Shown: positions 14,766 to 42,740, counted from the stretch's first letter. The stretch is 64,000 nucleotides of DNA from Alphaproteobacteria bacterium (GCA_965262615.1 OZ253545.1:1344001-1408000); one strand, 5' to 3'. Numbers and translations are program-made. The notes: generated from the letters alone by a model not told the origin.

Positions 14766-14792
14766 GACATTCTCCTTTGGAAAGCGAGACTG
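14766..14792 (-). promoter_or_regulatory. ROSE-like RNA thermometer hairpin
   Basis: UCUCGCU-UUCCAA-AGGAGA: U(U/C)GCU motif opposite the Shine-Dalgarno sequence of an sHSP. Confidence 0.6.
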
Positions 14793-14864
14793 CACAAAAG
14801 ACCTCAAAAGCATCCCTGCACAGCGTCTTGGTTGTGCCGACACAAAACCATGCCGACAATACTC

Positions 14865-14893
14865 ATATAGGTGTTTGAATTCACGCCGTCAAG
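14865..14893 (-). promoter_or_regulatory. RpoH (sigma32) promoter of ibpA
   Basis: CTTGAC-N16-CCTATAT matches the alphaproteobacterial CTTGAA-N15/16-CCTATAT consensus. Confidence 0.7.
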
Positions 14894-16409
14894 GCTTTTT
14901 TGAATTGGCAGGCGGCAGAATGGCGTAATAAATCACATGAGGAAATTCGTCAATCACCATTGTCTGTTCTTGCAGCTGCAGACGCTTGATCGCTTGACGG
15001 GTTTTTTCTTTTCTCCGATCATTGCCAGCGATCACAAATAACGCGCCATCTTGTCGCAACAGGTGGTCTTCTTTGGGCTTTTTTTGTGGATACGGATGAG
15101 CCAGACGCACCTCATCGCCTCCATAGAGCGCGAGCAAACTGCCGAATGTTCCGATATTTCCATACACTATCTTGAGGGGAGCGTTTGCTGTCTGCGTATT
15201 CCATTCATGCATGATTTTTTTGCTAATGACCCAGTGATTATCGCTTTGCGGATAAAATCCGTGCGTCAGTGGATAGTAATACACAGGCTTGAGCAACAAC
15301 ACAACGGCAGCCAATAAAATCAGATGCGGGCTATAAGCGCGCCATGTGGGACGCATGGTTGCCACCAGCACAATTCCCCACAGGGCATACATGGGGAGTG
15401 TCCACGAAAAAAAAGGTGCTCCCTGCACAAGCAAGAAACCCGCCGCCAGAATCGCAAAAGGCATAAAGGTGATGAACAAAAGAAAATGGCTCGCGCGCCG
15501 TGTCAGCCCAGCAAAAGGATAGATGAGCCTTGTTCGCAGCGATATGCCTCGTGCCAGCACCGCCACCGCCATGACGGAGGCAACAATCACCATCACCTCG
15601 CTGATGTGCTCAAACTGTCCCGTATGATACCCCATGACCAAAACATGAAAAGCCGTGTCCGCCAAATGATAAAACCCATAATAAATAGGCTTTGCACCAA
15701 TCGTCAGACACAAAATAATGGCGAGGTAAGGGTGGGCGGTTTTATAATGTTGACGCGCCTCACGGTCAATGAGAGTCCATGCCAGCACCGTGCCATAAAG
15801 AAGCCCGATGGATATTTTTGTCCAGCATCCCATTCCCAGCAACACACCCAACACCAGCCAAAACCAATGCTGATGAGCTTTTTCACGCAAGGGGCGCGTG
15901 GCATAAAAGGTGACGAGAGGAATGAAAATCCAAAAAGGATACTGCAGCACATTGTGATTGAGTCCCTGCAAATAGCCATGATTGAACTCAGCGACAGGCG
16001 CGCCCTGATACACCCCCAATGGAATAAGCAAAAACACAGAGACAAGGGCATCGCGTTTATTGTTCAGCAAAGCCAAGCCCATGTAATACACCCCGATATA
16101 TGTGGCAATGACAAACAATTGGGCGGCAATGTTGTGAGGATACACCAACAACGGCTCGCCGAAATTCAGCCAGTGGGTGAGCCAATACGCGACAGGCGGA
16201 TGACGATAATGCTCACCCCAAAAATCAAAGTCGGTCATCCGTCCCACAACGGAGTGAAACAAGATGTCCACATAAGGAATGGGCATGAAAAATGTGACGA
16301 GAATCCCCCACCCCACCATTTGCAAAACACAAATAAGCACCAGCCCGCGCCATGGCTTTTGAACAAAAAAATCCAGCAAAAGATACACGCGTTTGAGCAC
16401 TCTATTCAT
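14889..16409 (-). CDS. GT-C-like glycosyltransferase, array gene 1 (subtype A)
   Basis: Many TM segments; RHPP, NHNVLQYPFW, GCWTKIS. Confidence 0.8.
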   Translation of the reverse strand: MNRVLKRVYLLLDFFVQKPWRGLVLICVLQMVGWGILVTFFMPIPYVDILFHSVVGRMTDFDFWGEHYRHPPVAYWLTHWLNFGEPLLVYPHNIAAQLFVIATYIGVYYMGLALLNNKRDALVSVFLLIPLGVYQGAPVAEFNHGYLQGLNHNVLQYPFWIFIPLVTFYATRPLREKAHQHWFWLVLGVLLGMGCWTKISIGLLYGTVLAWTLIDREARQHYKTAHPYLAIILCLTIGAKPIYYGFYHLADTAFHVLVMGYHTGQFEHISEVMVIVASVMAVAVLARGISLRTRLIYPFAGLTRRASHFLLFITFMPFAILAAGFLLVQGAPFFSWTLPMYALWGIVLVATMRPTWRAYSPHLILLAAVVLLLKPVYYYPLTHGFYPQSDNHWVISKKIMHEWNTQTANAPLKIVYGNIGTFGSLLALYGGDEVRLAHPYPQKKPKEDHLLRQDGALFVIAGNDRRKEKTRQAIKRLQLQEQTMVIDEFPHVIYYAILPPANSKKP

Positions 16410-16412
16410 CTT

Positions 16413-17927
16413 CTATTTTTCGGCTGGCGGCAGAATGGCGTAATAAATCACATGAGGATATTCATCAATCTTCATGCTTTGCTCTGGCAGCTGCCAATCC
16501 TCTATGACTTGATGCCACTGTTTTTTCTCCGAATCCCAATCATCCTCGGAAAAAACAATAAGAGCTCCTTTTTGCTTGAGTTCCTCGTTCATTGTCACAT
16601 CTGGGTAAATGGTTTGATGTTGTTTTTTTTCAATTTCCAAATAGAGGGACAGCAGACCACCTAAATTTCCTGTCCGCCTATTAACAAAGCCTATGGGAGC
16701 ATTTCCTGTCTGGCTATTCCACTGATTCATGATTTTCTCAGAAATCACCCAATGATTATCCGCCCGAGGATAAAATCCGTGCGTCAATGGGTAGTAATAC
16801 ACAGGCTTGAGCAACAGCACAATGGCAGCCAATAAAATCAGATGGGGGGTATAAGTGCGCCATGTGGAACGCATGATTGCCACCAGCACAACACCCCATA
16901 ACCCATACATGGGCAGTGTCCAAGGAAAAGGAGGAACCACCTGCAGAGACACAGACCCCACCAGTATCACGGCAAACGGCATAAAGGTGATGAACAAGAG
17001 AAAGAAACTCCCCCGCCGTGTCATGTGTGCAAAGGGATACATCAAACGGGTCTGTAATGATACGCCTCTCGCCACAATCGCCACACCCACCATAGAAGCC
17101 CAAATCTCTAAAATAGCAGTGGCTCTATTCAATCTATCCAAATTGAATGCGAAGATTGAAACATACTGAACCACATAAGCCCAATGATAAAGCCCATAAT
17201 AAATGGGCTTTGCACCAATCAACAGACACAAAATAATGGCGAGGTAGGGGTAGACGGTTTTATAATGTTGACGCGCCTCACGGTCAATCAGAGTCCATGC
17301 CAACAGTGTGCCATAAAGTATCCCGATGGAGATTTTTGTCCAGCATCCCATTCCCAACAACACACCCAACACCAACCACCACAAAGATTGCCGCGCTTTC
17401 TCACTCAAAGGACGCGTGGCATAAAAGGTGACGAGAGGAAGCAACACCCAAAACGGATACTGCAGCACATTGTGATTGAGTCCCGCCAAATGCCCCTGAG
17501 CGAATGTCAAAGTGGGTGCGCCTTGATACACCCCCAACGGAATAAGCAGCAAAACAGCAACAAGGGCATCGCGTTTATTGTTCAGCAACGCCAACGCCAT
17601 GTAATACACCCCAATATATGTGGCGATGACAAAAATCTGTGCGGCGATGTTATGAGAATTAACCAGCAACGGCTCGCCAAAATTCAGCCAATGGGTGAGC
17701 CAGTAAGCCAAAGGCGGATGACGATACGCATCGCCCCAAAAATCAGCATCAGGACTTCTTCCAACAAATGTATGGAACAAGATGTCAGAATAGGGGATGG
17801 GCATGAAAAATGTGACGAGAATCCCCCACCCCACCATTTGCAAAACACAGATGAGAATCAGCCCGCGTGATGGCTTTTCCACAAAAAAATCCAACCACTG
17901 ATAGATGCGTGCGAGCAATGTATTCAT
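16413..17927 (-). CDS. GT-C-like glycosyltransferase, array gene 2 (subtype A)
   Basis: Paralog with the same motifs. Confidence 0.8.
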   Translation of the reverse strand: MNTLLARIYQWLDFFVEKPSRGLILICVLQMVGWGILVTFFMPIPYSDILFHTFVGRSPDADFWGDAYRHPPLAYWLTHWLNFGEPLLVNSHNIAAQIFVIATYIGVYYMALALLNNKRDALVAVLLLIPLGVYQGAPTLTFAQGHLAGLNHNVLQYPFWVLLPLVTFYATRPLSEKARQSLWWLVLGVLLGMGCWTKISIGILYGTLLAWTLIDREARQHYKTVYPYLAIILCLLIGAKPIYYGLYHWAYVVQYVSIFAFNLDRLNRATAILEIWASMVGVAIVARGVSLQTRLMYPFAHMTRRGSFFLLFITFMPFAVILVGSVSLQVVPPFPWTLPMYGLWGVVLVAIMRSTWRTYTPHLILLAAIVLLLKPVYYYPLTHGFYPRADNHWVISEKIMNQWNSQTGNAPIGFVNRRTGNLGGLLSLYLEIEKKQHQTIYPDVTMNEELKQKGALIVFSEDDWDSEKKQWHQVIEDWQLPEQSMKIDEYPHVIYYAILPPAEK

Positions 17928-17930
17928 CTT

Positions 17931-19415
17931 CTATTTCTCAGTGGGTGGGAGGATTGCGTAATAAATCACATGGGGATATTGGTCAATCGCCATTGTTTGT
18001 TCTGGCAGCTGAAGTTTTTTCATGACAAGACGCATTGAGTCCTTTTGCCAATCACCGTCACTGGAGAGCAGCAGTGCGCCGTTTGCATTGTGCTCCTTTG
18101 TCAGCTCACCATTGAAGATGCTTTGCGGCGCGTCCGCTCCCGCATAAAGAGCCACCACCCCGGCGAGTCTGCCAATATTGCCATAGATTGTGGTGAGGGG
18201 AGCGTTGTGTGTCTGGGCGTTCCATTCATCCATGATTTTTTCGCTGATGACCCAATGATTGTCGCTTTGCGGATAAAATCCGTGCGCCAGTGGATAGTAA
18301 TACACCGGCTTGAGCAACAGCACAACGGCAGCCAACAGCATCACATGAGGGCTATAGACGCGCCAAGCAGGACGCATGATTGCCACCAAAACGATTCCCC
18401 ACAGGGCATACATGGGCAGTGTCCACGAAAAAGCGGGCTCTATGTGAAGCCACGCCGCGACCATCATAAGAATTGCAAAAGGCATAAAGGTGACAACCAA
18501 GAGAAAATGGCTCATCCGCCGTGTCAGACCCACAAAGGGATAACAAAGGCGCGTGTCTTTTGATACGCCTCGTGCCAGCATCGCGACCGCCATCATGGAG
18601 GCAAAAATCACCAGCACCTCGCTGATGCGATCAAAGTCGGCGACATAGTGTGCCTTGTCCATAATGTATTCGGTCATATCTTTCCAATGGAGAATTCCAT
18701 AATACAAAGGTTTCATCCCAATCGTCAGACACACAAGAAGGGCGAGATAGGGCGCAATGGTTTTGTAATGCTGGCGCGCCTCACGGTCAATGAGAGTCCA
18801 TGCCAGCACCGTGCCATACAGTAGCCCGATGGAGATTTTTGTCCAGAATCCCATTCCCAACAAAACGCCTAATACCAACCACCAAAAAGATTGCCGCGCC
18901 TTCTCACTCAAGGGGCGTGTGGCATAAAGGGTGACGAGAGGAATGAAAATCCACAAAGGATACTGCAACACATTGTGATTGAGCCCCTGCAAGTAGCCAT
19001 GATTGAATTCGGTGATGGGCGCGCCCTGATACACTCCCAATGGAATAAGCAAAAACACAGAAACCAAAGCCTGCACTTTGTCTTTGAACAAAGCCAATGC
19101 CATGTAATAAACACCACCATATGTGGCAATGACGAACAATTGGGCGGCGATGTTGTGAGGATACACCAGCAAATTCTCACCGAAATTCAGCCAATGGGTG
19201 AGCATATAGGCAAGCGGCGGATGATGAAAGGACTCACCCCAAAAATTATGACTTCTTCCAATGAAAGAATGAAACACAATATCAAAATACGGGATGGGCA
19301 TGAAAAATGTGACAAGAATTCCCCACCCCACCATTTGCAAAGCACAGATGAGCAAAAGCCCCCGTGACGGTTTTTGCACAAAGAAATCCAACCACCGATA
19401 GCCGTGTGCCAACAC
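17931..19415 (-). CDS. GT-C-like glycosyltransferase, array gene 3 (subtype A, GTG start)
   Basis: Paralog; the ATG at the homologous position is absent. Confidence 0.78.
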   Translation of the reverse strand: MLAHGYRWLDFFVQKPSRGLLLICALQMVGWGILVTFFMPIPYFDIVFHSFIGRSHNFWGESFHHPPLAYMLTHWLNFGENLLVYPHNIAAQLFVIATYGGVYYMALALFKDKVQALVSVFLLIPLGVYQGAPITEFNHGYLQGLNHNVLQYPLWIFIPLVTLYATRPLSEKARQSFWWLVLGVLLGMGFWTKISIGLLYGTVLAWTLIDREARQHYKTIAPYLALLVCLTIGMKPLYYGILHWKDMTEYIMDKAHYVADFDRISEVLVIFASMMAVAMLARGVSKDTRLCYPFVGLTRRMSHFLLVVTFMPFAILMMVAAWLHIEPAFSWTLPMYALWGIVLVAIMRPAWRVYSPHVMLLAAVVLLLKPVYYYPLAHGFYPQSDNHWVISEKIMDEWNAQTHNAPLTTIYGNIGRLAGVVALYAGADAPQSIFNGELTKEHNANGALLLSSDGDWQKDSMRLVMKKLQLPEQTMAIDQYPHVIYYAILPPTEK

Positions 19416-19426
19416 CTTATTGGTCT

Positions 19427-20911
19427 CTATTTTTCGGCTGGCGGTAGAATGGCGTAATGAATCACATGGGGATACTCATCAATCTTCATGGTCTGCTCTG
19501 GCACCTGCAGGTCCTCTATGATTTGGTAAAAATGATCCTTATACCATTGAGCACTGTCAAAAACAACAAGAGCGCCCCTGTGGCGTTCATTCTCTACTAT
19601 ACGCTCTTGAGGCGTATCGGCGTCGTTATAGAGGGATACCACACCTCCAAGAACTCCAGCAGTGCCATAGACGATGCCCAGGGGCGCATTGTCTGTCTGC
19701 TGATTCCATTCATCCATGATTTTCTCAGCAACGACCCAGTGATTGTCCACTCTAGGATACAATTTGTGTTTCATTGAGGAGTGATAGACAGGCTCGAGCA
19801 ACAGCACAATGGCAGCCAATAAAATCAGATGAGGGGTATAAGTTCGCCATGTGGAACGCATGATTGCCACCAGCACAACGCCCCATAGCCCATACATGGG
19901 CAGTGTCCAAGAAAAGAGAGGGGGCGACCGCCACACCGCTCCCACCGCCAGAACCGCGAAAGGCATAAAGGTGATGAACAAGAGAAAATGGCTCGCGCGC
20001 CGCGTCATAGAAGCGAAGGGGTAACAAAGACGAGTCCGCAACGATATCCCTCCAGCCAGCACCGCCACCGCCGCCATATAAAGCAAAATATTCCAAATAT
20101 GAGTGATGGAATTAGAGTCGGCTTCATGGTGTATCTTTTCCACAAGATACTGAGCCATGTTCTGCCAATAGAGCAGTCCATAATACAGAGGCTTTGCGCC
20201 AATTGCCAGACACACAAGAAAGGCAAGATAGGGATAGGGAGTTTTGTAATGCTGACGCGCCTCACGATCAATCAGAGTCCATGCCAGAATCGCGCCATAA
20301 AGCAAGCCGATGGAGATTTTTGTCCAGAAACCAATCCCCAACAACACCCCCAGTGCCAGCCACCACCAATGCTGATGTGCCTTTTCACTCAAAGGACGCG
20401 TGGCATGAAAGGCGGCGAGAGGAATCAACACCCAAAACGGATACTGCAACACATTGTGATTGAGTCCCTGCAAATCCCATAGCCCGTGATACACCCCCAA
20501 TGGAATGAGCAACAATACAGAAACAAAAGCGTGCACTTTATTTTTGAATAATGCCAACCCCATATGATAAACCCCAAAATATGTGGCAATGACAAACAGT
20601 TGCGCGGCAATGTTGTGAGGATACAGCAAAAACGGCTCGCCGAAATTCAGCCAATGGGTGAGCAAATAAGCTGCCGGTGGATGACGATAATACTCACCCC
20701 AAAAATTGACACCAAGATCCCTTCCAACATAGGTATGGTACAAGATGTCATAATGAGGGATGGGCATGAAGAATGTGACGAGAATGAACCATGCCACCAT
20801 TTGCAAGCCACAGATGAGCAATAGCCCACGCATCGGCTTTTGCACAAAAAAATCCAACCCCCGATAGCCGTGTGTCAATAATTGATTGCCGTATGTCAAA
20901 AGTTTATTCAT
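19427..20911 (-). CDS. GT-C-like glycosyltransferase, array gene 4 (subtype A)
   Basis: Paralog; shortened loop before LQGLNHNV. Confidence 0.8.
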   Translation of the reverse strand: MNKLLTYGNQLLTHGYRGLDFFVQKPMRGLLLICGLQMVAWFILVTFFMPIPHYDILYHTYVGRDLGVNFWGEYYRHPPAAYLLTHWLNFGEPFLLYPHNIAAQLFVIATYFGVYHMGLALFKNKVHAFVSVLLLIPLGVYHGLWDLQGLNHNVLQYPFWVLIPLAAFHATRPLSEKAHQHWWWLALGVLLGIGFWTKISIGLLYGAILAWTLIDREARQHYKTPYPYLAFLVCLAIGAKPLYYGLLYWQNMAQYLVEKIHHEADSNSITHIWNILLYMAAVAVLAGGISLRTRLCYPFASMTRRASHFLLFITFMPFAVLAVGAVWRSPPLFSWTLPMYGLWGVVLVAIMRSTWRTYTPHLILLAAIVLLLEPVYHSSMKHKLYPRVDNHWVVAEKIMDEWNQQTDNAPLGIVYGTAGVLGGVVSLYNDADTPQERIVENERHRGALVVFDSAQWYKDHFYQIIEDLQVPEQTMKIDEYPHVIHYAILPPAEK

Positions 20912-20914
20912 GGG

Positions 20915-22399
20915 TCATCTCTGTTGAGCAGGCGGCATGATAGCGTAATAAATCACATGAGGATATTCGTCAATCTTCATGGTCTGCTCTGACAACTGCC
21001 AATTCTTTATGTCTTGGCGAATTCGGTTCTTATGCCAATCATCTTCGGAGAAAACAAAGAACGCTCCTTGTTTTTGCAGCAATTCATCATCTGCTGGCTT
21101 GTTGCGTTGATGGCTGAGCCGCACCTCATCGCCCGCATAGAGTGCCACCACCCCTGCCAAGTGCCCAATACTGCCAAAAACATGATACAGGGGCTGATTG
21201 GATGTTTGTTGTCGCCAGCGGTCTATGATTTTACCGACAATCACCTGAGCATTATTCAAGCGAGGATAGAAGCCAGTCTCAAATGGGTATTTATAGAAGG
21301 GTTCTAATAAGAGAGCCATAGCCAATACTAAAATCACATGGGCACTGTATGTGCACCACCCCGCTCGCACCAGTGCCACCACCACGATGCCCCACAGAGG
21401 ATACATGGGCGATACCCAATGATCAGTCATATTAACAGGGATGATGAGGGTGATGAGAAAAAGGATGATGAACGGCATCAAGGCAAACAGACACAAAAAG
21501 TGCGTGTCTCGTTTCGTCATGTGATGAAATGGATAGGTGAGACGCGTGCGCCATGAAACCAAGCCCGCCAGCAGCACCGCCAGCAGCATGAGTTTTGGGG
21601 TCTTGATGACATTACTCCACACATGATCATCTTCATCTCTACGCCACTGAAGATAGCTCTCAATGGCATGACTGTATTGCCACGCTTGCTCCAAAGGAAT
21701 TGCCGCAATACACAGAAAGATTAGCAATGCAGCGTAGGGATAGGGTGTGGCAAGATGAGCGCGCGCCTCTTTATCCATGAGAGTCCACAGTGCCACCGTT
21801 GCCAGCAATAAAACAATGGAATATTTCGCCCACAGAGCCACCCCCATGACAAAACCCAACAGCAACCACCAACGGTGCTGCCGTGCATCTTGATTCAAAG
21901 GACGCGTGGCATAAAAGGTGAGCAAGGGAATTAACGCCCACAGTGGATATTGAATCACATTGTGATTGACTCCAACCCAAGACCCTTTTTGATACACATA
22001 CAACCCCGTGAGCAACAAGGTGGCGACAAGGGCTTGCACTTTGTCTTTGAGAAGCACAACGCCCATGGCGTAGACCGCACCATAGGTGGCAATCACAAAC
22101 AATTGCGTGATGATATAATAGGCAGGAAATGGCGGCACATCGCCACTGCTCAACAGGTAGTAAAACATATTGACCAGAGGCGGATTGCGCAGTTCAGCCG
22201 CCGCAAATCCAAATTCCCGCACAAGATAAGAGAGGGCAACCGTGTCAAAGGGAGGAATTGGTTTGACAAAAATTCCCATCATCCCCCACCCAAGCACCTG
22301 CAATCCCATGAGCAACACCAAACCGCGTGACGGCTTTTGAACAAAAAAATCTAAAATTTGATAGCCGCGTGTGAGCAATTGTTGTAATGGGCGTTTCAT
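20915..22399 (-). CDS. GT-C-like glycosyltransferase, array gene 5 (subtype B1)
   Basis: REFGF..LRNPPLVN, NHNVIQYP, WAKYS; start at MKRPLQ. Confidence 0.8.
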   Translation of the reverse strand: MKRPLQQLLTRGYQILDFFVQKPSRGLVLLMGLQVLGWGMMGIFVKPIPPFDTVALSYLVREFGFAAAELRNPPLVNMFYYLLSSGDVPPFPAYYIITQLFVIATYGAVYAMGVVLLKDKVQALVATLLLTGLYVYQKGSWVGVNHNVIQYPLWALIPLLTFYATRPLNQDARQHRWWLLLGFVMGVALWAKYSIVLLLATVALWTLMDKEARAHLATPYPYAALLIFLCIAAIPLEQAWQYSHAIESYLQWRRDEDDHVWSNVIKTPKLMLLAVLLAGLVSWRTRLTYPFHHMTKRDTHFLCLFALMPFIILFLITLIIPVNMTDHWVSPMYPLWGIVVVALVRAGWCTYSAHVILVLAMALLLEPFYKYPFETGFYPRLNNAQVIVGKIIDRWRQQTSNQPLYHVFGSIGHLAGVVALYAGDEVRLSHQRNKPADDELLQKQGAFFVFSEDDWHKNRIRQDIKNWQLSEQTMKIDEYPHVIYYAIMPPAQQR

Positions 22400-22400
22400 G

Positions 22401-23912: not shown

Positions 23913-23915
23913 GGG

Positions 23916-25388: not shown

Positions 25389-25389
25389 G

Positions 25390-26907: not shown

Positions 26908-26910
26908 CTT

Positions 26911-28365: not shown

Positions 28366-28368
28366 CTT

Positions 28369-29856: not shown

Positions 29857-29859
29857 CTT

Positions 29860-31344: not shown

Positions 31345-31347
31345 CTT

Positions 31348-32823: not shown

Positions 32824-32824
32824 G

Positions 32825-34303
32825 TCATGGCTCGGCGGGCGGCAGAATGGCATAATAAATCACATGAGGATATTCATCAATCTTCATGCTTTGTTCTTTG
32901 AGATTAAAGCGCGCTATTTTCTGACGCACTTCATCACTGAACCAATGTTTTCCATCAAAAACAAAGAGCACTCCTTGTTTTTGCAACAGTTCATCATCGG
33001 CTGCCTTGTTGTATTGATGAATGAGCCGCGCCTCATTGCCCGCATAGAGAGCCACCACCCCTGCCAATTGCCCAATATTGCCAAAAACATGATAGAGGGG
33101 CTGATTGGATGTTTGTTGTCTCCAGCGGTCTATAATTTTACCGACAATCACCTGCGAATTATTGAAGCGAGGATAAAACCCCCTCTCGAATGGGTATTGA
33201 TAGACGGGCTTTAATAAGAGAGCCACAGCCAATACTAAAATCACATGAGCACTGTATTTGCGCCACCCCGCTCGCACCAATGCCACCAACACAATCCCCC
33301 ACAAAGGATACATGGGTGATAACCAATGAAAAATCATATTAACAGGGATTATGAGGGTGATGAGAAAAAGGATGATGAACGGCATCAATGCAAAGAGACA
33401 CAAAAAGTGTGTGTCTCGTTTCGTCATGTGATGGAATGGATAGGTGAGACGAGTTCGCCATGAAACCAAGCCCGCCAGCAGTACCGCCAGCAGCATGAGT
33501 TTTGGTTTGTTGATGACATTACTCCACACATTTTCGTCTCTATCCCACCACCGCAGATGGTTCTCAATGGCATGACTGTTTTGCCAAGCTTGTTCTAAAG
33601 GAATTGCCGCGACACACAGAAATATCAACAATGCCCCATAGGGATAGGGTGTGGCAAGATGAGCGCGCGCCTCTTTGTCAATGAGAACCCACAGCCCCAC
33701 GGTTGCCAGCAGCAGAGCGATGGAATATTTCGCCCACAGAGACACCCCCATGACAAACCCCAACAGCAACCACCAGCGATGTTGATGTGCCTTTTGTGTG
33801 AGAGGACGAGTGGCATAAAAGGTGAGCAAAGGAATTAACGCCCAGAACGGATATTGAATCGTATTGTGATTCAATCCAACCAAAGAATATCTGTTATACG
33901 GATCCAACCCCGTGAGCAACAAGGTGGCGACAAGGGCTTGCACTTTGTCTTTGAGAAGCACAACGCCCATGGCGTAGACCGCGCCATAGGTGGCAATCAC
34001 AAATAATTGCGTGATGATATAATGGGCAGGAAATGGCGGCATATCGCCACTGCCCAACAGGTAGTAAACCATATTGACAAGAGGCGGATTGCGCAGTTCA
34101 GCTGCTCCAAATCCAAATTCCCTCACAAAATAAGAGAGTACAACCATGTCAAAGGGAGGAATGGGATTGACAAAAATTCCCATCATCCCCCACCCAAGCA
34201 CCTGCAATCCCATCAGCAACACCAAACCGCGTGACGGCTTTTGCACAAAAAAATCCAACAAAAGATACACGCGTGTGAGCAATTGTTGTAATGGGCGTTT
34301 CAT
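32825..34303 (-). CDS. GT-C-like glycosyltransferase, array gene 13 (subtype B1)
   Basis: Paralog with the same motifs. Confidence 0.8.
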   Translation of the reverse strand: MKRPLQQLLTRVYLLLDFFVQKPSRGLVLLMGLQVLGWGMMGIFVNPIPPFDMVVLSYFVREFGFGAAELRNPPLVNMVYYLLGSGDMPPFPAHYIITQLFVIATYGAVYAMGVVLLKDKVQALVATLLLTGLDPYNRYSLVGLNHNTIQYPFWALIPLLTFYATRPLTQKAHQHRWWLLLGFVMGVSLWAKYSIALLLATVGLWVLIDKEARAHLATPYPYGALLIFLCVAAIPLEQAWQNSHAIENHLRWWDRDENVWSNVINKPKLMLLAVLLAGLVSWRTRLTYPFHHMTKRDTHFLCLFALMPFIILFLITLIIPVNMIFHWLSPMYPLWGIVLVALVRAGWRKYSAHVILVLAVALLLKPVYQYPFERGFYPRFNNSQVIVGKIIDRWRQQTSNQPLYHVFGNIGQLAGVVALYAGNEARLIHQYNKAADDELLQKQGVLFVFDGKHWFSDEVRQKIARFNLKEQSMKIDEYPHVIYYAILPPAEP

Positions 34304-34304
34304 G

Positions 34305-35804
34305 TCATGGCTCGGCGGGTGGCAGAATGGCGTAATGAATCACATGAGGATATTCATCAATCTTCATGCTCTGCTCTGGCACTTGCAAATTTTTTATGAC
34401 TTGGCGAAATTGATGACTGTTCATCTCGCCCTCTCGAAAAACAACAAGAGCTCCTCTGTGCCGTTCATTCTCTGCGAGATGCCCGATGGGATAACCGCCA
34501 CCACCATAAAGGGACACCACGCCTCCAAGAATTCCACTCACCCCATACACGACACCAAGGGGCGCATTGTCTGTCTGCCGATTCCATTCACGCATGACTT
34601 TTTCGGCAATCACCCAGTGATTGTCCGTTCTGGGATAAAATCCATGTGCCAACGGATAGTAATACACCGGCTTGAGCAACAACACAACAGCAGCCAATAG
34701 TATCAGATGAGGGCTATAGGCGCGCCATGTGGAACGCATGATTGCCACCAACACAATTCCCCACAAAGCATACATGGGCAGTGTCCAAGAAAAAAGTGGA
34801 AGCACCTGCCGATACACCGACCCCACGACCAAAACTGCAAAAGGCACAAAGGTCACAAACAGGAGAAAGAAACTCGCCCGCCGTGTCATGCGCGTAAAGG
34901 GATACATCAGGCGCGTGTTCATTGATATGCCTCGTGCCACAATCGCCACACCCACCATAGAAGCCAAAATCACCACAATATCAATGGGGTCGTCAAAAGA
35001 CACCACATCAGATGCTCTGTCTAAAACATAATTAGCCGTCCACGCCCAATGATAAAACCCATAATAAATGGGCATTGCCCCAATCAACAGACACAAAATC
35101 ATGGCAAGGTAGGGGTGGGCGGTTTTATAGTGCCCACGCGCGTCGCGATCAATCAGAGTCCATGCCAACAGTGTGCCATACAGGAGCCCAATGGAGATTA
35201 TCGTCCAACATCCCATTCCCAACAACACCCCCAACACCAGCCAAAACCAATGCTGATGAGCTTTTTCACGCAAAGGAAGGGTGGCGTAAAAGGTGACGAG
35301 AGGAATGAAAATCCAAAAAGGATACTGCAACACATTGTGATTGAGCCCTTGCAAATAGCCGTGAGTGAATTCAATAATGGGTGCGCCTTGATACACCCCC
35401 AATGGAATGAGCAACAAAACAGAAACCAAAGCCTGCACTTTGTCTTTGAACAAAGCCAAACCCATGTAATAAACACCAATATATGTGGCAATGACAAAAA
35501 TCTGCGCGGCGATGTTATGAGAATAAACCAACAGTGTTTCGCCGAAATTCAGCCAATGAGCGAGCCAGTAAGCCAAAGGCGAATTACGATACCCATCGCC
35601 CCAAAAATCAGTATCAGGATTGCTTCCAATAAAGGTATGGAGCAAGATATCAAAATACGGGATGGGCATGAAGAATGTGACGAGAATGCCCCATCCCACC
35701 ATTTGCAAAACACAAATGAGCACCAGTCCGTGCACCGGCTTTTGCACAAAAAAATCCAGCCAAAGATACACGCGTGTGAGCAATTGTTGTAATGGGCGTT
35801 TCAT
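34305..35804 (-). CDS. GT-C-like glycosyltransferase, array gene 14 (subtype A)
   Basis: Paralog; NSP replaces HPP and the conserved Lys is Ile (GCWTIIS). Confidence 0.78.
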   Translation of the reverse strand: MKRPLQQLLTRVYLWLDFFVQKPVHGLVLICVLQMVGWGILVTFFMPIPYFDILLHTFIGSNPDTDFWGDGYRNSPLAYWLAHWLNFGETLLVYSHNIAAQIFVIATYIGVYYMGLALFKDKVQALVSVLLLIPLGVYQGAPIIEFTHGYLQGLNHNVLQYPFWIFIPLVTFYATLPLREKAHQHWFWLVLGVLLGMGCWTIISIGLLYGTLLAWTLIDRDARGHYKTAHPYLAMILCLLIGAMPIYYGFYHWAWTANYVLDRASDVVSFDDPIDIVVILASMVGVAIVARGISMNTRLMYPFTRMTRRASFFLLFVTFVPFAVLVVGSVYRQVLPLFSWTLPMYALWGIVLVAIMRSTWRAYSPHLILLAAVVLLLKPVYYYPLAHGFYPRTDNHWVIAEKVMREWNRQTDNAPLGVVYGVSGILGGVVSLYGGGGYPIGHLAENERHRGALVVFREGEMNSHQFRQVIKNLQVPEQSMKIDEYPHVIHYAILPPAEP

Positions 35805-35805
35805 G

Positions 35806-37314
35806 TCATGGCTCGGCTGGCGGTAGAATAGCGTAATAAATCACATAAGGATATTCGTCAATCTTCATGCTTTGCTCTGGCACTTGCAGACGCTCTATGG
35901 TTTTGCGCAAATGATTTTTCGTCCAGTCATAATCATGAAAAACAAAAAGCACCCCTCCTCTATGGAGTTCATTGTCCACTTCATAATAGTGAAGCGTATA
36001 AGCCATGTTATACAAGGATACCAGCCCTCCAAGAACAACACTCCCATACACAATGCCAAGGGGAGCGTTTTGCGTCTGCTTGTTCCATTCATCCGTTATT
36101 TTCTCGGCGATCACCCAGTGATTATCCGCTCTGGGATAAAATCCGTGTGCCAACGGATAGTAATAGACAGGCTTGAGCAACAGCACAATGGCAGCCAATA
36201 AAATCAGATGGGGACTATAGTGATGCCATGTGGAACGCATGATTGCCACCAGCACAACGCCCAATAGCCCATACATGGGCAGTGTCCAAGAAAAAGGAGG
36301 AATCACCTGCAGAGACACCGACCCCACCAATATCACCGCAAAAGGCATAAAGGTTAGAACCAAGAGAAAATGGCTCGCGCGCCGTGTCAGACGCGCAAAG
36401 GGATAGCAAAGACTTGTTCGCAGCGATATGCCTCTTGCCACAATCGCCACACCCACCATAGAAGCCAAAATCACCACAATATCAATGGGGTGGTCAAAAT
36501 CTATCAAACGATATGCTCTGCCTAAAGCATGATTAGCATGATTGGCCACATTAGCCCAATGATAAAACCCATAATACAAGGGCATCGCGCCAATCAACAG
36601 ACACAACCCAATGGCAAGATAGGGATAGGCGGTTTTATAGTGCCCACGCGCCTCACGATCAATCAGAGTCCATGCCAACAGTGTGCTGTAGAGCAATCCG
36701 ATGGAGATTTTTGTCCAGCATCCCATTCCCAACAACACGCCCAACACCAGCCACCACAAAGATTGACGCGCCTTTTCCCTCAAAGGACGCGTGGCATAAA
36801 AGGTGACAAGAGGAATCAAAATCCAAAAAGGATACTGCAGCACATTGTGATTAAGACCCTGCAAATAACCATGAGAAAACTCGGTAATGGGCGCGCCTTG
36901 ATACACCCCCAATGGAATGAGCAACAATACACAGACAAGGGCATCGCGTTTATTTTTCAGCAATTCCAAGCCCATGTAATACACCCCAATGTATGTGGCA
37001 ATGACAAACAATTGAGCGGCGATGTGATGTGGATACACCAACAACGGCTCGCCAAAATTCAGCCAATGAGTGAGCCAGTAAGCCAAAGGCGGATGATGAT
37101 ACCCATCGCCCCAAAAATCAGCATCAGGGTTTCTTCCAACAAAGGTATGGAGCAAGATATCATAATACGGGATGGGCATGAAGAATGTGACCAAAATCCC
37201 CCACCCCACCATTTGCAAGCCACAAATGAGCAAAAGCCCCCGCACCGGCTTTTCCACAAAAAAATCCAGCAAAAGATACACGCGTTTGAGCAATTGTTGT
37301 AATGGGCGTTTCAT
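35806..37314 (-). CDS. GT-C-like glycosyltransferase, array gene 15 (subtype A)
   Basis: Paralog with the same motifs. Confidence 0.8.
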   Translation of the reverse strand: MKRPLQQLLKRVYLLLDFFVEKPVRGLLLICGLQMVGWGILVTFFMPIPYYDILLHTFVGRNPDADFWGDGYHHPPLAYWLTHWLNFGEPLLVYPHHIAAQLFVIATYIGVYYMGLELLKNKRDALVCVLLLIPLGVYQGAPITEFSHGYLQGLNHNVLQYPFWILIPLVTFYATRPLREKARQSLWWLVLGVLLGMGCWTKISIGLLYSTLLAWTLIDREARGHYKTAYPYLAIGLCLLIGAMPLYYGFYHWANVANHANHALGRAYRLIDFDHPIDIVVILASMVGVAIVARGISLRTSLCYPFARLTRRASHFLLVLTFMPFAVILVGSVSLQVIPPFSWTLPMYGLLGVVLVAIMRSTWHHYSPHLILLAAIVLLLKPVYYYPLAHGFYPRADNHWVIAEKITDEWNKQTQNAPLGIVYGSVVLGGLVSLYNMAYTLHYYEVDNELHRGGVLFVFHDYDWTKNHLRKTIERLQVPEQSMKIDEYPYVIYYAILPPAEP

Positions 37315-37315
37315 G

Positions 37316-38815
37316 TCATGGCTCGGCTGGCGGCAGAATGGCGTAATAAATCACATGAGGAAATTCATTAATGACCAATTTTTTCTCTTTGAGATTAAAG
37401 CGCGCCATTTCCTGACGCACCTCACCTTTGAACCCATCATTTCCACTATGGAAGACGAATAAAGCCCCTTCTTTTTGCAGCAGCTGACCGTCTTTGACCT
37501 CCTCTCTGTATTGACGGCTGGGATACATATCGTATTGATGAATGAGTTTCACCTCTTTTCCCCCATAGAGACCCAGCAGACCTCCCAATGAACCAATATC
37601 GCCCCAAATATAAGCCATTGGTGCATCGTTGGTTTCTTGCCTCCACCGCTCCACAATTTTTTCAGCCACCACCTGATGATTATTCAAACGAGGATAAAAA
37701 CCCTTGAATGGATGTTGATAGAAAGGCTTTAATAAGAGAGCCAGTGCCAATAGCAAAATCACATGGGCACTGTAGTGCCGCCATCCTGCCCGTAGCAGTG
37801 CCACCAATAAAATTCCCCACAGAGGATACATGGAGGATGTCCAATAAAATCTCAGGGGAATATCCATCACGACTCCTGCCACAAAAAGCACGATGAATGG
37901 CATCAATGCGAAGAAGCAAAGAAAATGAGTCTCTCGTTTTGTCATGGTGTGAAAAGGATAGACAAGACGCGTCTTCAATGAAATGAGCCCAGCAAGCAAC
38001 ACGGCAAGGAGCATGAGTTTCGGAATGATGATGACTCTCAACCAAAAATTTTCTGTGTCATGGTAACCTCCATAACCCTCAATCGCATGACTGTATTGCC
38101 ATGCTTGTTCTAAAGGAACTGCCGCCACACACAAACAGATTAACAATGCGCCATAGGGATAGGGCGTGGCAAGGTGAGCGCGCGCCTCTTTGTCCATGAG
38201 AACCCATAGTCCCATCGTCACCAACAGCACAACAATATAATACTTCGCCCAAATTGGTATTCCCATGACAAAACCCAACAATAGCCACCAGCGGTGCTGC
38301 TGTGCACCTTGATTCAAAGGACGGGTGGCATAAAAAGTGAGCAATGGAATCAATGCCCAAAACGGATACATCATCAAATCATGATTGACCCCCACCCAAG
38401 TATATTTCTGATACAGATACAATCCCACCAACAATAGGGTGGCAGCGAGGGCTTGCACTTTATTTTTCAGCAAAACAATCCCCAATTGATATACGGCAGC
38501 ATAAGTCGCAATGACAAATAATTGTGCCACGACATAATGAGGCAAAAGAAACAACGGCTCATCCATATAAAGCCAATGATTGAGCAGATACGAAAGCGGC
38601 GGATGTCTTTTCTCAGAACCATCCGCGCCATGGAGTCCGACCAGTGAATTCACAAGTATATCATGGTTCGGGATTGCATGAAAAAAAGTCCTCATCACCC
38701 CCCACCCCAGCATCTGCAATCCCATGAGCAACGCCAAGCCGCGTGACGGTTTTTGCACAAAAAAATCCAACCACCGATAGCCGCGTGCTAATAATTTTTG
38801 TAATGGGCGTTTCAT
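37316..38815 (-). CDS. GT-C-like glycosyltransferase, array gene 16 (subtype B2)
   Basis: Paralog with the same motifs. Confidence 0.8.
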   Translation of the reverse strand: MKRPLQKLLARGYRWLDFFVQKPSRGLALLMGLQMLGWGVMRTFFHAIPNHDILVNSLVGLHGADGSEKRHPPLSYLLNHWLYMDEPLFLLPHYVVAQLFVIATYAAVYQLGIVLLKNKVQALAATLLLVGLYLYQKYTWVGVNHDLMMYPFWALIPLLTFYATRPLNQGAQQHRWWLLLGFVMGIPIWAKYYIVVLLVTMGLWVLMDKEARAHLATPYPYGALLICLCVAAVPLEQAWQYSHAIEGYGGYHDTENFWLRVIIIPKLMLLAVLLAGLISLKTRLVYPFHTMTKRETHFLCFFALMPFIVLFVAGVVMDIPLRFYWTSSMYPLWGILLVALLRAGWRHYSAHVILLLALALLLKPFYQHPFKGFYPRLNNHQVVAEKIVERWRQETNDAPMAYIWGDIGSLGGLLGLYGGKEVKLIHQYDMYPSRQYREEVKDGQLLQKEGALFVFHSGNDGFKGEVRQEMARFNLKEKKLVINEFPHVIYYAILPPAEP

Positions 38816-38816
38816 G

Positions 38817-40295
38817 TCATGGCTCGGCTGGCGGCAGAATGGCGTAATAAATCACATGAGGATATTCATCAATCTTCATTTTTTGCTCTTTGAGATTAAA
38901 GCGCGCCATTTCCTGACGCACTTCATCCCTGAACCAATCGCCTTCAAAAGACACAAACAATGCACCCTCTTTTTGCAACAGTTCATCGTCTGCTGCCTCG
39001 TTGCGTTCATTGATGAGCCGCGCCTGATTGCCCGCATAGAGAGCCACCACCCCTCCCAAGAACCCAATATTGCCAAAAACATGATATATGGGTTGATTGG
39101 ATGTTTGTTGTCTCCAATTTTCCATAATTTTTTCGCTAATCACCTGAGGATTATTCAAGCGAGGATAAAAACCTCTCTTGAATGGGGATTGATAGAAGGG
39201 CTTTAATAAGAGAGCCACTGCCAATATTAAAATCACATGGGCACTGTAGTGCCGCCACCCAGCCCGCACCAGTGCCACCAACAAAATCCCCCACAAGGGA
39301 TACATGGAGTATGTCCAATAATACTTTAGCTCAATATGGATCATGAGAGTGAGTAGCCCAAGCATTATGAACGGCATCAGTGCAAAGAGGCACAAAAAGT
39401 GTGTGTCTCGTTTTGTCATGTCATGGAATGGATAGGTGAAACGAGTTCGCAATGAGACCAACCCCGCCAACAGTGCCGCAAGTAGCATGAGTTTTGGCAT
39501 CAATAACACCTTGAGCCACACATTTCTTTCTGCATTTTCCCGTTGAATATGTCCCTCAATAAAATGGCTATATTGCCATGCTTGTTCCAAAGGAATCGCC
39601 GCCACACACAGAAATATCAACAATGCCCCGTAGGGATAGGGTGTGGTGAGATGAGCGCGCGCCTCTTTGTCAATGATAACCCATATTCCCACCGTTGCCA
39701 GCAATAAAACAATGGAATACTTAGTCCAAAGAGCCAGCCCCATGACAAAGCCCAGCAACAACCACCAGCGATGCTGCTGTGCATCTTGACTCAAAGGACG
39801 CGTGGCATAAAAGGTGAGCAAAGGAATCAAAGCCCAAAATGGATATTGAATCACATTGTGATTGACTCCAATCCAAGCCTCTTTGTGATACACCCCCAAC
39901 CCCACCAACAATAAGGTGGCAACAAGGGCTTGCACCTTGTTTTTGAGAAGTGCAATGCCCATGCCGTAGACCGCGCCATAGGTGGCAATCACAAATAATT
40001 GCGTGATGATATAATGGGCAGGAAATGGCGGCATATCGCCACTGCCCAACAGGTAGAATAATATATTGACAAGAGGCGGATGGCGCAGGCTACCTGTTCC
40101 GAATCCAAATTCTCTCACTTGATAAGAGTGTCCGATCATGTCATAGGGAGGGATTGGAAAAACAAAAATTGCCATGACTCCCCACCCCAGCACTTGCAAT
40201 CCCATCAGCAATGCCAAGCCACGCATTGGCTTTTCCACAAAAAAATCCAGCCACCGATAGACGCGTACTAATAATTTTTGTAATGGGCGTTTCAT
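38817..40295 (-). CDS. GT-C-like glycosyltransferase, array gene 17 (subtype B1)
   Basis: Paralog with the same motifs. Confidence 0.8.
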   Translation of the reverse strand: MKRPLQKLLVRVYRWLDFFVEKPMRGLALLMGLQVLGWGVMAIFVFPIPPYDMIGHSYQVREFGFGTGSLRHPPLVNILFYLLGSGDMPPFPAHYIITQLFVIATYGAVYGMGIALLKNKVQALVATLLLVGLGVYHKEAWIGVNHNVIQYPFWALIPLLTFYATRPLSQDAQQHRWWLLLGFVMGLALWTKYSIVLLLATVGIWVIIDKEARAHLTTPYPYGALLIFLCVAAIPLEQAWQYSHFIEGHIQRENAERNVWLKVLLMPKLMLLAALLAGLVSLRTRFTYPFHDMTKRDTHFLCLFALMPFIMLGLLTLMIHIELKYYWTYSMYPLWGILLVALVRAGWRHYSAHVILILAVALLLKPFYQSPFKRGFYPRLNNPQVISEKIMENWRQQTSNQPIYHVFGNIGFLGGVVALYAGNQARLINERNEAADDELLQKEGALFVSFEGDWFRDEVRQEMARFNLKEQKMKIDEYPHVIYYAILPPAEP

Positions 40296-40296
40296 G

Positions 40297-41808
40297 TCAT
40301 GGCTCGGCGGGTGGCAGAATGGCGTAATAAATCACATGAGGATATTCATCAATCTTCATGCTCTGCTCCTTGAGATTAAAGCGCGCGATTTCCTGACGCA
40401 CTTCATCTTTGAACAAATCATTTCCACTATGGAAAACGAATAAAGCCCCTTCTTTTCGAAGCAGCTGACCGTCTTTAACCTCCTCTTTGTATTGACGGCT
40501 AGGATACACATCGTCGTATTGATGAATGAACTTCACCTCTTTTCCGCCATAAAGACCCAGCACACCTCCCAATGAAGTAATATCACCAAAAATATAAGCC
40601 ATTGGTGCATCATTGGTTTCTTGTCTCCACCGCTCCACAATTTTTTCAGCCACCACCTGCGGATTGTTAAGGGACAAATAGAGGTCTTTTGTGAAGGGAT
40701 ACTTATAGAAAGGCTTCAGCAATAAATACAAAGCCAACAGTAAAATCACATGGGCACTGTATTTCCGCCACCCCGCTCGCACCAGTGCCACCAATAAGAG
40801 ACTCCACAGGGGATACATGGCGGCTGTCCAATAAAATCTCATGCTGGCATCCATCACGCCTGCAACCACAAAAAGAACGATGAATGGCATCAATGCAAAG
40901 AAACAAAGAAAATGAGTCTCTCGTTTTGTCATGGTGTGAAAAGGATAGGTGAGACGCGTCTTCAATGAGATGAGCCCAGCGAACAGCACGGCAAACAGCA
41001 TAAATTTCGGCTTGGTGATGACTTTCAACCAAAAATTTTCGTCATCATGTCCAGACTTTCCCCACCCCTCAATCGCGTGACTGTATTGCCATGCTTGTTC
41101 TAAAGGAACTGCCGCCACACACGCAAATATCAGCAACGCCCCATAGGGATAGGGCGTGGCAAGATGAGCGCGTGCCTCTTTGTCCATGAGAACCCACAGT
41201 CCCACAGTCACCAACAACAAAGCAATCTGATACTTCACCCAGACTGGCACTCCCATGACGAAGCCCAACAACAACCACCATCGGTGCTGCTGTGCATCGT
41301 GACTCAAAGGACGCGTGGCATAAAAAGTGAGCAATGGAATCAACGCCCAAAACGGATACATCATCACATTATGATTGACTCCAACAAACCAAGTAGATTT
41401 ATAATACTCATACAATCCCACCAACAATAAGGTGGCGGCGAGGGCTTGCACTTTATTTTTGAACAAGACGACTCCCAATTGATAGACGACACCATAGGTG
41501 GCAATCACAAATAATTGCGCCACGACATAATGAGGCAAAAGGAACAAAGGCTCACCCATATGAAGCCAATGGTTGACAACATAGGGAAGATGCGGATGTC
41601 TTTTATCGTGAGCATCTTCGCCATGGAGTCCTATCAGTGAATTCAAAAGTATATCAAGGTCAGGGATTGGATTAAAAAAGGTCGCCATCACCCCCAATGC
41701 CAGCACCTGCAATCCCATGAGCAACGCCAAGCCGCGCCACGGCTTCTGCACAAAAAAATCCAAGAAGCGATAAAGAGGCATCCCTAGGCGATACACTCTT
41801 TTTTTCAT
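40297..41808 (-). CDS. GT-C-like glycosyltransferase, array gene 18 (subtype B2, first transcribed)
   Basis: Paralog with a unique N-terminus; ATGA overlap with the etfA stop. Confidence 0.8.
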   Translation of the reverse strand: MKKRVYRLGMPLYRFLDFFVQKPWRGLALLMGLQVLALGVMATFFNPIPDLDILLNSLIGLHGEDAHDKRHPHLPYVVNHWLHMGEPLFLLPHYVVAQLFVIATYGVVYQLGVVLFKNKVQALAATLLLVGLYEYYKSTWFVGVNHNVMMYPFWALIPLLTFYATRPLSHDAQQHRWWLLLGFVMGVPVWVKYQIALLLVTVGLWVLMDKEARAHLATPYPYGALLIFACVAAVPLEQAWQYSHAIEGWGKSGHDDENFWLKVITKPKFMLFAVLFAGLISLKTRLTYPFHTMTKRETHFLCFFALMPFIVLFVVAGVMDASMRFYWTAAMYPLWSLLLVALVRAGWRKYSAHVILLLALYLLLKPFYKYPFTKDLYLSLNNPQVVAEKIVERWRQETNDAPMAYIFGDITSLGGVLGLYGGKEVKFIHQYDDVYPSRQYKEEVKDGQLLRKEGALFVFHSGNDLFKDEVRQEIARFNLKEQSMKIDEYPHVIYYAILPPAEP

Positions 41809-42740
41809 AATTTTTTCGTTAATTGCGGCAGTGCATCAAAGAGGTCGGCGACCAATCCATAGTCGGCGATTTGAAAAATGGGAGCTTCTTCATCCTTGTT
41901 GATGGCGACAATGACTTTGGCATCCTTGATTCCCGCCAGATGCTGAATAGCTCCCGATATTCCCACGGCAATGTAAAGGTCGGGGGCAACGATTTTTCCC
42001 GTTTGTCCCACCTGCCAATCGTTGGGGACAAATCCCGCATCCACCGCAGCGCGCGATGCGCCGATGGCTGCTCCCAGTTTGTCAGCCAGTTGTTCCAGCA
42101 GTTTGAAGTTGTCGCTGCTGCCCACGCCCCGTCCGCCTGAGATGACAATGCGCGCCGCCGTCAATTCGGGACGATCCCCACCGCTGAGCTGCTGGCTGTG
42201 AAACGCCGACAATTCCCGCTCCCTCTTCCATGAAATGTTTTCAATGGGGGCGATTTTTTTGCTCTCGCCACAGGCATCAAATGCGGTGGCACGCACAGTC
42301 AGCACGATTTTTTTGTCACGGACGCGCAAAGTCTCCAACGCATTGCCGGCATAAATGGGACGCACAAAGACATCTTTGTCCTCAATGGCAATGACATCAG
42401 ACAACGGCTGCACATTCAACAAAGCGGCAAAACGCGGCATGATGTTCTTGCCAAAACTGGTAGCCGCCGCCACGAATCCCTCATAGTCGGACGCCATAGA
42501 CATCATGACATCGGTCACATCCTCCGCCAGAGGATGCTCAAAACACTCATGAGAAACACACACAACGCGGGCAACGCCGTCCAGAGAGGCGGCACTCCGA
42601 GCAACCCGCTCCAACTGCTGATGCCCGAGAAGCAACAAGGTGACATCCCCGCGCTGCCACGAACACGCCGCCGTCACAGCACGGCGACTGGCATCACTGA
42701 GCTCATTGCCCGTTATTTCCCCACAGACGAGAACGCTCAT
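41805..42740 (-). CDS. etfA: Electron transfer flavoprotein alpha subunit
   Basis: [33 protein letters not shown]. Confidence 0.97.

Follow-up and report, generated by a model that had tools for sequence, protein, structure and literature searches.

What could a small bacterial genome gain from 18 consecutive copies of a gene for a membrane-embedded glycosyltransferase? The question is raised by a 64,000-nucleotide stretch of DNA (hereafter the window) from an Alphaproteobacteria bacterium (GCA_965262615.1, OZ253545.1:1344001-1408000), in which an initial annotation had described an array of intact, diversified genes resembling glycosyltransferases of the C type (GT-C) and had proposed it as a candidate system for diversifying a surface glycan. 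The open reading frame (ORF) listing returned exactly 18 consecutive ORFs on the minus strand at 14889-41808, encoding proteins of 484-506 amino acids (aa), and a translation check found a single terminal stop in each and an internal stop in none (0/18), just as had been claimed. The repeat unit measures ~1.5 kb, and the array as a whole (C1:1358889-1385808 on the genome contig) takes up 1.75% of a single-contig genome of 1,542,258 bp. The genes are numbered here G01 to G18 (Table 1), G18 being the first in the direction of transcription.

The spacers between genes are 1-11 nucleotides (nt) long once the N-terminal extensions of G05, G07 and G12 are discounted; these extensions of 8-10 codons, which overlap the upstream gene, are probably artefacts of the ORF caller, and the MKRPLQ start common to the three genes leaves a 1-nt spacer. 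All 18 copies are unique, the longest exact stretch common to any two being 92 nt (median 34 nt), and metagenome contigs from other runs cover positions 22000-41999 (30/30 bins in three runs and 27/30 in a fourth, X5). Because every copy is different and exact shared stretches are short, a collapsed, inflated or otherwise misassembled array, the artefact that the annotation had wanted checked, is unlikely.

Fold, sequence types and selection

The assignment of these proteins to the GT-C class had been made from motifs, and both profile searches and structure prediction agree with it. The PMT_2 family (PF13231) was matched by 15/18 copies with hmmscan at E<=0.001 and by 17/18 in a six-frame search of the genome, where scores of 38-63 bits compare with a curated cut-off of 26.1 and the copy missed was G14; in the Pfam search of the flanks and window, G01 and G14 gave no PMT_2 match at E<=0.01. 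PMT_2 was the only Pfam family found on the 18 copies, and no MIR-type lumenal domain was detected among them. NCBIfam gave only chance-level matches, with no ArnT model at E<=0.1 for the five copies tested, and family profiles (A1, A3) found 0 matches at E<=1 among PDB sequences. Out of 1.84 billion proteins, a representative search recovered 1153 with E<=0.001, of which 493 reached E<=1e-10 and 27 reached E<=1e-30, and the nearest named metagenomic relative is annotated 'ArnT-like glycosyltransferase'.

An AlphaFold (AF2) model of G10 reached a predicted local distance difference test score (pLDDT) of 91.4 and a predicted template modelling score (pTM) of 0.93. It was built on an alignment of 133 sequences that takes in relatives from beyond the array lineage, at 18-27% identity to G10; an alignment of the 35 array-type sequences alone gave an unusable model (pLDDT 53.6). 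When the G10 model was compared with the PDB by Foldseek, 21/21 matches at E<=0.001 were GT-C enzymes, among them STT3/OST, ArnT, ALG12, AglB, DPY19 and AftA. VIA-align placed ArnT 5f15 first (Z 23.7, root-mean-square deviation 4.5, 427 residues, model residues 10-493), followed by Pmt4 (Z 22.2, model residues 13-384) and STT3 (Z about 21.5), with 11-13% identity in the structural alignment to ArnT. As judged from the model, then, the array proteins are PMT_2/ArnT-like enzymes of the GT-C fold. The topology derived for them, which is our own reading of model helices, hydropathy and the positive-inside rule and does not come from coordinates, has 11 predicted membrane helices, the N-terminus inside, and a C-terminal domain of ~110 residues predicted to lie in the periplasm.

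An all-against-all identity matrix divides the copies into ten of type A (60-83% identical) and eight of type B (59-83% identical), with 41-48% identity between types. The A/B split of the initial annotation is thereby upheld, while its further division of type B into B1 (three copies) and B2 (five copies) is borne out in the first-loop sequence and blurs when identity is taken over the whole length. The copies contain the motifs on which it had relied (RHPPL, GLNHNVLQYPFW and W-x-K). Variation had been said to concentrate in the loop before the xPP motif, the central loop and the C-terminal domain, and all three are among the most variable blocks (G10 residues 54-62, 133-150, 243-284, 325-334 and 429-470). 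All of these blocks fall on the predicted periplasmic side, save for a spill into transmembrane helix 8 (TM8). At the conserved extreme, an aspartate that the helices of the model place in the first loop (Asp48, D48) is invariant in 18/18 copies and 35/35 array-type sequences and is kept in at least 90% of the 133 family members, and W336 is invariant in 133/133.

The ratio of nonsynonymous to synonymous change (dN/dS) is 0.33 within type A and 0.32 within type B, far from the neutral value that had been considered as an alternative. Together with synonymous differences of about 0.42-0.43, this indicates copies that are old and constrained, under purifying selection. Constraint differs by membrane side, with dN/dS of 0.42 (A) and 0.57 (B) in predicted periplasmic loops, 0.26 (A) and 0.20 (B) in transmembrane segments, and 0.25 (A) and 0.23 (B) in cytoplasmic segments. 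Values of about 1 occur in EL4 of type A, EL5 of both types and EL2 of type B, although a loop value near 1 can mean relaxed constraint and need not be selection for diversity. At least 17 of the 18 copies appear functional by their sequences.

Exchange between copies, strain differences and origin of the array

How have the copies come to differ? Inside the genes, the synonymous difference between types A and B is 0.6-0.85, falling to 0.41-0.59 in three interior 20-column windows, and over the outermost alignment columns, 40 at the start and 28 at the end, it amounts to 0.34-0.52. Which copy lies closest to a given one depends on the segment compared, and at the 3' end the closest copy can belong to the other type (G01 to G17, G03 to G09, G09 to G10), and G05 and G07, whose whole proteins are 70% identical, are 97% nt-identical over alignment columns 461-520 in the C-terminal region. 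Read from these comparisons, types A and B have been homogenised at the gene ends, and the gene interiors are mosaics. The homogenised stretch spans each junction, where DNA conservation across both types runs from ~75 nt before the end of one gene through the spacer to ~60 nt into the next, with three spacer variants that track array position, not gene type. Such conserved ends would provide homology handles for unequal crossing-over and gene conversion, and segments would pass between copies by gene conversion. Because of the crossing-over at gene ends and gene conversion proposed here, related strains would be expected to hold different, mosaic repertoires.

Sister strains are represented in metagenomes. 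Related sequence occurs in 7 runs from 3 studies, none of them listed as an RNA run, with labels that include sponge metagenome and marine metagenome, and close relatives of the array proteins are known only as metagenome proteins, which form at least 26 clusters (among 8000 candidates scored). Of these 26 clusters, 17 are >=90% identical to some copy in the window; the other nine are 54-87% identical to the nearest copy and are, by this measure, types that the present genome lacks. In 15 ortholog pairs (full-length only, with fragments P0016 and P0026 dropped), 355 of 425 residue differences (84%) match the residue of another window paralog at the same column, whereas residues shuffled 200 times among differing columns gave 22% on average and never more than 27.5%; because this control ignores site-specific residue preferences, parallel substitution explains part of the 84%, and the excess should be taken as an upper bound on gene conversion. 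Different copies are also joined in short metagenome contigs, at offsets of 1488 to 6335 nt, close to multiples of the ~1.5-kb unit, which fits mosaic genes in other strains. A profile search with the 18 sequences across genome and metagenome contig collections found no relative locus. The idea that the array is a device of diversification is strengthened by these findings, both in the exchange of segments between copies and in the types held by sister strains.

Among other genomes of the class, this copy number stands out. PMT_2 is matched in 245 of 401 genomes, a tally that includes the unpublished genome G242; when the best 9 candidates per genome are considered, the other 400 have 0-8 matches and the array genome at least 9. 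With G10 as query, relatives were found in 0/3 same-order genomes, and 2/37 same-class genomes gave matches, both weak (E 1.4e-12 and 1.8e-6). Relatives have an ATR-etfB-etfA unit whose conserved first gene is ATR, of the Cob(I)alamin adenosyltransferase family, and the copy number at the etfA locus had been singled out as a check: in 3/3 same-order genomes the unit is followed by other genes, identified by ORF sizes and N-termini only as thiolase-like ORFs in two genomes and a 292-aa ORF in the third. The array thus appears to be a lineage-specific gain, with a relative in 0/3 same-order genomes and other genes after etfA in 3/3. In the two genomes with thiolase-like ORFs, reductase-like ORFs also occur directly after etfA, by the same N-termini and sizes; here a thiolase and a short-chain reductase (window 52326-54235) lie ~10 kb upstream of ATR-etfBA, and the place after etfA is taken by the GT-C array. 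A literature search, with supplementary files outside its scope, found no description of a comparable array.

Table 1. Genes of the array and its immediate surroundings, in window coordinates; the array genes are listed in the direction of transcription.
Feature	Position	Strand	Basis or remark
G18, type B (B2), first array gene	40297..41808	-	PMT_2 5.7e-15; ATG overlaps etfA stop (ATGA)
G17, type B (B1)	38817..40295	-	ORF, identity matrix, PMT_2 six-frame search
G16, type B (B2)	37316..38815	-	ORF, identity matrix, PMT_2 six-frame search
G15, type A	35806..37314	-	ORF, identity matrix, PMT_2 six-frame search
G14, type A, intact ORF	34305..35804	-	Sole copy without PMT_2 match in six-frame search
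G13, type B (B1)	32825..34303	-	ORF, identity matrix, PMT_2 six-frame search
G12, type B (B2)	31348..32853	-	Probable true start 32823 (MKRPLQ); PMT_2 six-frame search
G11, type A	29860..31344	-	ORF, identity matrix, PMT_2 six-frame search
G10, type A, modelled copy	28369..29856	-	pLDDT 91.4; ArnT Z 23.7
G09, type B (B2)	26911..28365	-	PMT_2 4.2e-15
G08, type A	25390..26907	-	ORF, identity matrix, PMT_2 six-frame search
G07, type B (B2)	23916..25412	-	PMT_2 5.7e-14; probable true start 25388
G06, type A	22401..23912	-	ORF, identity matrix, PMT_2 six-frame search
G05, type B (B1)	20915..22429	-	Probable true start 22399; ORF, identity matrix
G04, type A	19427..20911	-	10 deviations at nearly invariant columns; PMT_2 six-frame search
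G03, type A, GTG start	17931..19415	-	ORF, identity matrix, PMT_2 six-frame search
G02, type A	16413..17927	-	ORF, identity matrix, PMT_2 six-frame search
G01, type A, last array gene	14889..16409	-	ORF, identity matrix, PMT_2 six-frame search
Example of the 17 internal gene junctions	29796..29935	-	DNA conserved across types A and B
etfA, directly upstream of array	41805..42740	-	Stop overlaps G18 start
etfB	42737..43492	-	Pfam/flank annotation
Cob(I)alamin adenosyltransferase-family gene (ATR)	43505..44074	-	Promoter-like site 44082-44055 overlaps start codon
Hsp20-family gene, downstream of array	14244..14843	-	Flank annotation

The composition of the array gives no indication of foreign origin, its GC content being 47.2% compared to 51.4% for the genome and its GC content at third codon positions 0.52 compared to a median of 0.58, inside the 5-95% range. 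No tRNA gene flanks it, the abutting genes being etfA and the Hsp20-family gene; mobility genes were not searched for. Elsewhere in the window, three stretches of lower GC (42-45% in 2-kb windows; 46943-48253, 50170-52320 and 58201-58872) encode a DUF2971 protein, a 716-aa protein with nine Sel1 repeats and DUF2971, and a DUF4145 protein.

Signals of expression and of phase variation were also sought within the array. Sigma-70-like sites are not enriched (36 against 29.6 +/- 5.1, and 18 against 18.0 +/- 4.2). Terminator-like sites are (57 against 23.9 +/- 4.6, and 39 against 16.2 +/- 3.9), and we draw nothing from them, as they are weak stems in T-rich coding sequence that recur from copy to copy. 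At 5/17 internal junctions (minus strand; 32880-32852, 29915-29887, 28424-28396, 26966-26938 and 22456-22428), the upstream gene contains a promoter-like TTGATG-N17-TATTAT within its conserved 3' end, and at the other junctions a synonymous TAT-to-TAC change drops the last T of the -10 hexamer; these sites could be due to chance. Homopolymer tracts of >=7 nt occur at 0.89 per kb in the array and 0.66 genome-wide, and none exceeds 8 nt. A T7 run (GAT TTT TTT GTG, encoding the conserved D-F-F-V) lies 39-81 nt inside the start of 15/18 genes (e.g., 29812-29818) and is interrupted by C in G03, G07 and G11. Homopolymers thus make no case for slipped-strand phase variation, the T7 run being too short to argue from.

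Donor, acceptor and competing readings

If the array encodes transferases, what would supply the sugar, and what would receive it? The genome, 98.3% complete, has one strong GT2 glycosyltransferase (PF00535, 9.5e-29), GtrB-like and with two C-terminal hydrophobic segments, which adjoins the only GtrA-family gene (1.5e-17); the pair lies at C1:213085-214465. All three predicted parts of a Gtr-type system, a polyprenyl-phosphate-sugar synthase, a flippase and a GT-C transferase, are therefore present as candidates. Beside the pair (C1:213085-216793) are three small paralogs (131-155 aa) of retropepsin-like aspartyl protease families, one of which matches below curated cut-offs. LpxC is present, and Wzy_C (O-antigen ligase), Polysacc_synt (Wzx) and Bac_transf (the initiating phosphoglycosyltransferase) were not found in the 98.3%-complete genome.

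Two further glycosyltransferase loci lie apart from the window. A 19th, distant GT-C gene (29% identical; PMT_2 3.7e-26) is arranged head-to-head with a lipoprotein-type gene of 4830 aa that is rich in Gly, Thr and Ser (16-26% Ser+Thr), in which a Pfam search found nothing and which is a candidate for a glycosylated giant surface protein. This GT-C gene follows one for a 538-aa polytopic membrane protein without a Pfam family (C1:696663-714365). At a distance of 21 kb from it is a second array, of ten soluble GT2 genes (Glyco_tranf_2_4; C1:720946-731502, minus strand, 328-421 aa), whose products are 43-89% identical and lack a hydrophobic segment. As in the GT-C array, their starts are far better kept than the rest: over residues 1 to ~45 the products hardly differ (10/10), and six also have a C-terminal tail in common, against an identity of about 50% overall. 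Together the two arrays make up 2.4% of the genome.

Given the observed gene structure, fold, selection pattern, mosaicism and strain differences, we favor, with moderate confidence, the reading that the array serves to diversify a surface glycoconjugate and is a library of periplasmic "third-component" glycosyltransferases whose members recombine. The single GtrB-like GT2 would make the carrier-linked sugar, the adjacent GtrA-like protein would flip it, and each copy would take the sugar from the polyprenyl-phosphate carrier at the periplasmic face and probably add it to a surface glycoconjugate. The genome search turned up neither an O-antigen ligase nor Wzx nor an initiating phosphoglycosyltransferase, which makes lipid A-core (rough lipopolysaccharide, LPS) or exported proteins the likeliest acceptors. 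The paralogs keep the catalytic scaffold and differ mainly in the predicted periplasmic loops and C-terminal domain, and would therefore differ in acceptor or linkage specificity. Surface variation against phages or sponge host cells is a plausible selective driver.

Several points weigh against this reading. We infer the donor, the acceptor, enzymatic activity, expression and the selective driver. The candidate donor module is unlinked, the GT2/GtrA pair lying 1.13 Mb from the array. The first loop carries a family consensus of D-V-x-E, whose glutamate, three residues after the aspartate, is replaced in the array. G14, which like G04 and G18 deviates at conserved positions, differs at four that are conserved in the other 17 copies (R21H, P71S, R172L and K198I), and two of these residues, K198 and P71, also reach >=90% conservation across the wider family; by its sequence it may be an inactive, impaired, altered or re-purposed member. 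The joints between copies in metagenome contigs, resting on short contigs and 90% likeness, could be other paralogs or assembly-graph chimeras, and the sister-strain comparison concerns proteins, not array order and copy number. The limits given above for the derived topology, the gene-conversion estimate and the loop values near 1 count in the same direction.

A more far-reaching version of the library, which we put forward as doubtful, is that it shuffles itself: the conserved ~140-nt junctions would act as handles by which entire genes, or parts of them, are exchanged, duplicated and dropped, and, with the GT2 array, the copies would write a strain-specific surface sugar code on rough LPS or surface proteins that sponge cells and phages read. 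If true, this would be antigenic variation through diversified enzymes instead of antigens, in a 1.5-Mb symbiont that keeps inventing periplasmic glycosyltransferase specificities.

The 18 enzymes might instead work as an assembly line, acting in sequence or by a fixed division of labour to build one periplasmic or surface polymer. That all 18 are intact and under purifying selection is consistent with this, and since no conventional pathway based on undecaprenyl pyrophosphate was found, extracytoplasmic assembly could be the main route. AftA, AftB, AftD, Emb and PimE are among the GT-C structural matches, and mycobacterial GT-C enzymes build arabinan and mannan. Fixed steps, however, fit poorly with copies that swap segments freely and have homogenised ends, with sister strains that hold types lacking here, and with identities of up to 83% within a type, which are closer than expected for distinct steps. 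The 3 same-order genomes searched lack the family as well, and it therefore does not form an ancient, conserved pathway. We consider an assembly line unlikely.

Protein O-glycosylation, in which PMT-like paralogs would each serve different exported or surface proteins such as Sel1-repeat or giant surface proteins, overlaps in mechanism with the library that we favor. In its favor are the Pfam assignment, which is to the PMT_2 mannosyltransferase family, the place of Pmt4 and Pmt1-Pmt2 near the top of the structural matches (Z 20.7-22.2), and the failure to find O-antigen machinery; the head-to-head pairing of the 19th GT-C gene with the Ser+Thr-rich lipoprotein-type gene and the one Sel1 gene in the window would also suit it. 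However, the Pmt matches span the membrane part only (model residues 13-384), whereas the ArnT alignment extends through the C-terminal domain and so takes in the whole protein; the 18 copies carry PMT_2 alone, with no MIR-type lumenal domain; and no link was found between the array and any candidate substrate gene. We rank this reading after the assembly line and consider it improbable. Heterodimers of A and B products, by analogy with Pmt1-Pmt2, were set aside, as the gene order does not alternate between the types.

Redundant amplification, a runaway of unequal crossing-over whose copies are kept by dosage or chance without distinct specificities, would be eased by the conserved junctions and could accommodate the loops with dN/dS near 1 and the deviations of G14, G04 and G18, but it is very unlikely given 0/18 pseudogenes in a 1.54-Mb genome, the age and constraint indicated by dN/dS of about 0.32 at synonymous differences of about 0.42, and a divergence that is patterned by membrane side and not uniform.

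Relation to known systems and significance

ArnT (CAZy GT83; structures 5EZM and 5F15) is the undecaprenyl-phosphate-Ara4N:lipid A transferase (Ara4N, 4-amino-4-deoxy-L-arabinose), normally encoded by a single gene within the arn operon. It is the best whole-length structural match, including the periplasmic C-terminal domain, and is alike in size and general architecture, but the array proteins, at 11-13% identity, showed no sequence-level membership (five copies against the NCBIfam ArnT models, two family profiles against PDB sequences), and the array consists of 18 copies that recombine and have no genes for sugar synthesis next to them. The eukaryotic and actinobacterial protein O-mannosyltransferases (GT39) have a lumenal MIR-type domain and a DE motif in loop 1; Pfam reported no such domain on the array copies, and they keep D48 but have I, V, M or T directly after it in place of glutamate.

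The initial annotation had likened the layout to variable-antigen arrays. In Anaplasma msp2, Ehrlichia p28/omp-1, Borrelia vls and Neisseria pilS, one expression site is combined with truncated silent cassettes. Clustered paralogs, segmental gene conversion and variants that differ between strains are indeed common to these families and the array, but they encode surface antigens and the array encodes enzymes. As a mechanism the analogy fails, since the array shows neither an evident expression site nor truncated silent cassettes, and 18/18 copies are full-length with their own starts.

It is the surface glycans of a bacterium that determine its recognition by phages and host cells, and the known routes to glycan variation are swaps of whole polysaccharide loci, prophage-borne gtr operons and phase-variable transferases. 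The logic described for Gtr-type and related systems (Kelly et al. 2024, PMC11127046) combines a polyprenyl-phosphate-sugar synthase, a flippase and a specificity-determining GT-C transferase; in Salmonella and Shigella, several such transferases per genome (GtrA/GtrB/GtrC systems) are reported to lead to surface-antigen diversity (see also Broadbent et al. 2010, PMC2909390; Davies et al. 2013, PMC3688519). Set against the logic so outlined, the present genome is alike in having synthase, flippase and GT-C parts. It differs in that these parts are unlinked and do not form one locus; in having one synthase/flippase pair for 19 transferases; in that, with no O-antigen ligase found, the acceptor is probably not O antigen; in that diversity comes from recombination within the array and not from prophage-borne operons; and in that the homopolymer count found no phase-variation signal in the array.

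A 1.54-Mb genome thus spends 1.75% of its DNA on 18 recombining copies of a periplasmic transferase, apparently without a conventional O-antigen pathway. If the copies differ in specificity, an uncultured animal-associated bacterium would have, in the recombination of enzyme genes, a compact source of glycan diversity. The array is also a natural series of chimeric GT-C enzymes, usable to map the determinants of acceptor specificity, which are poorly understood in this family.

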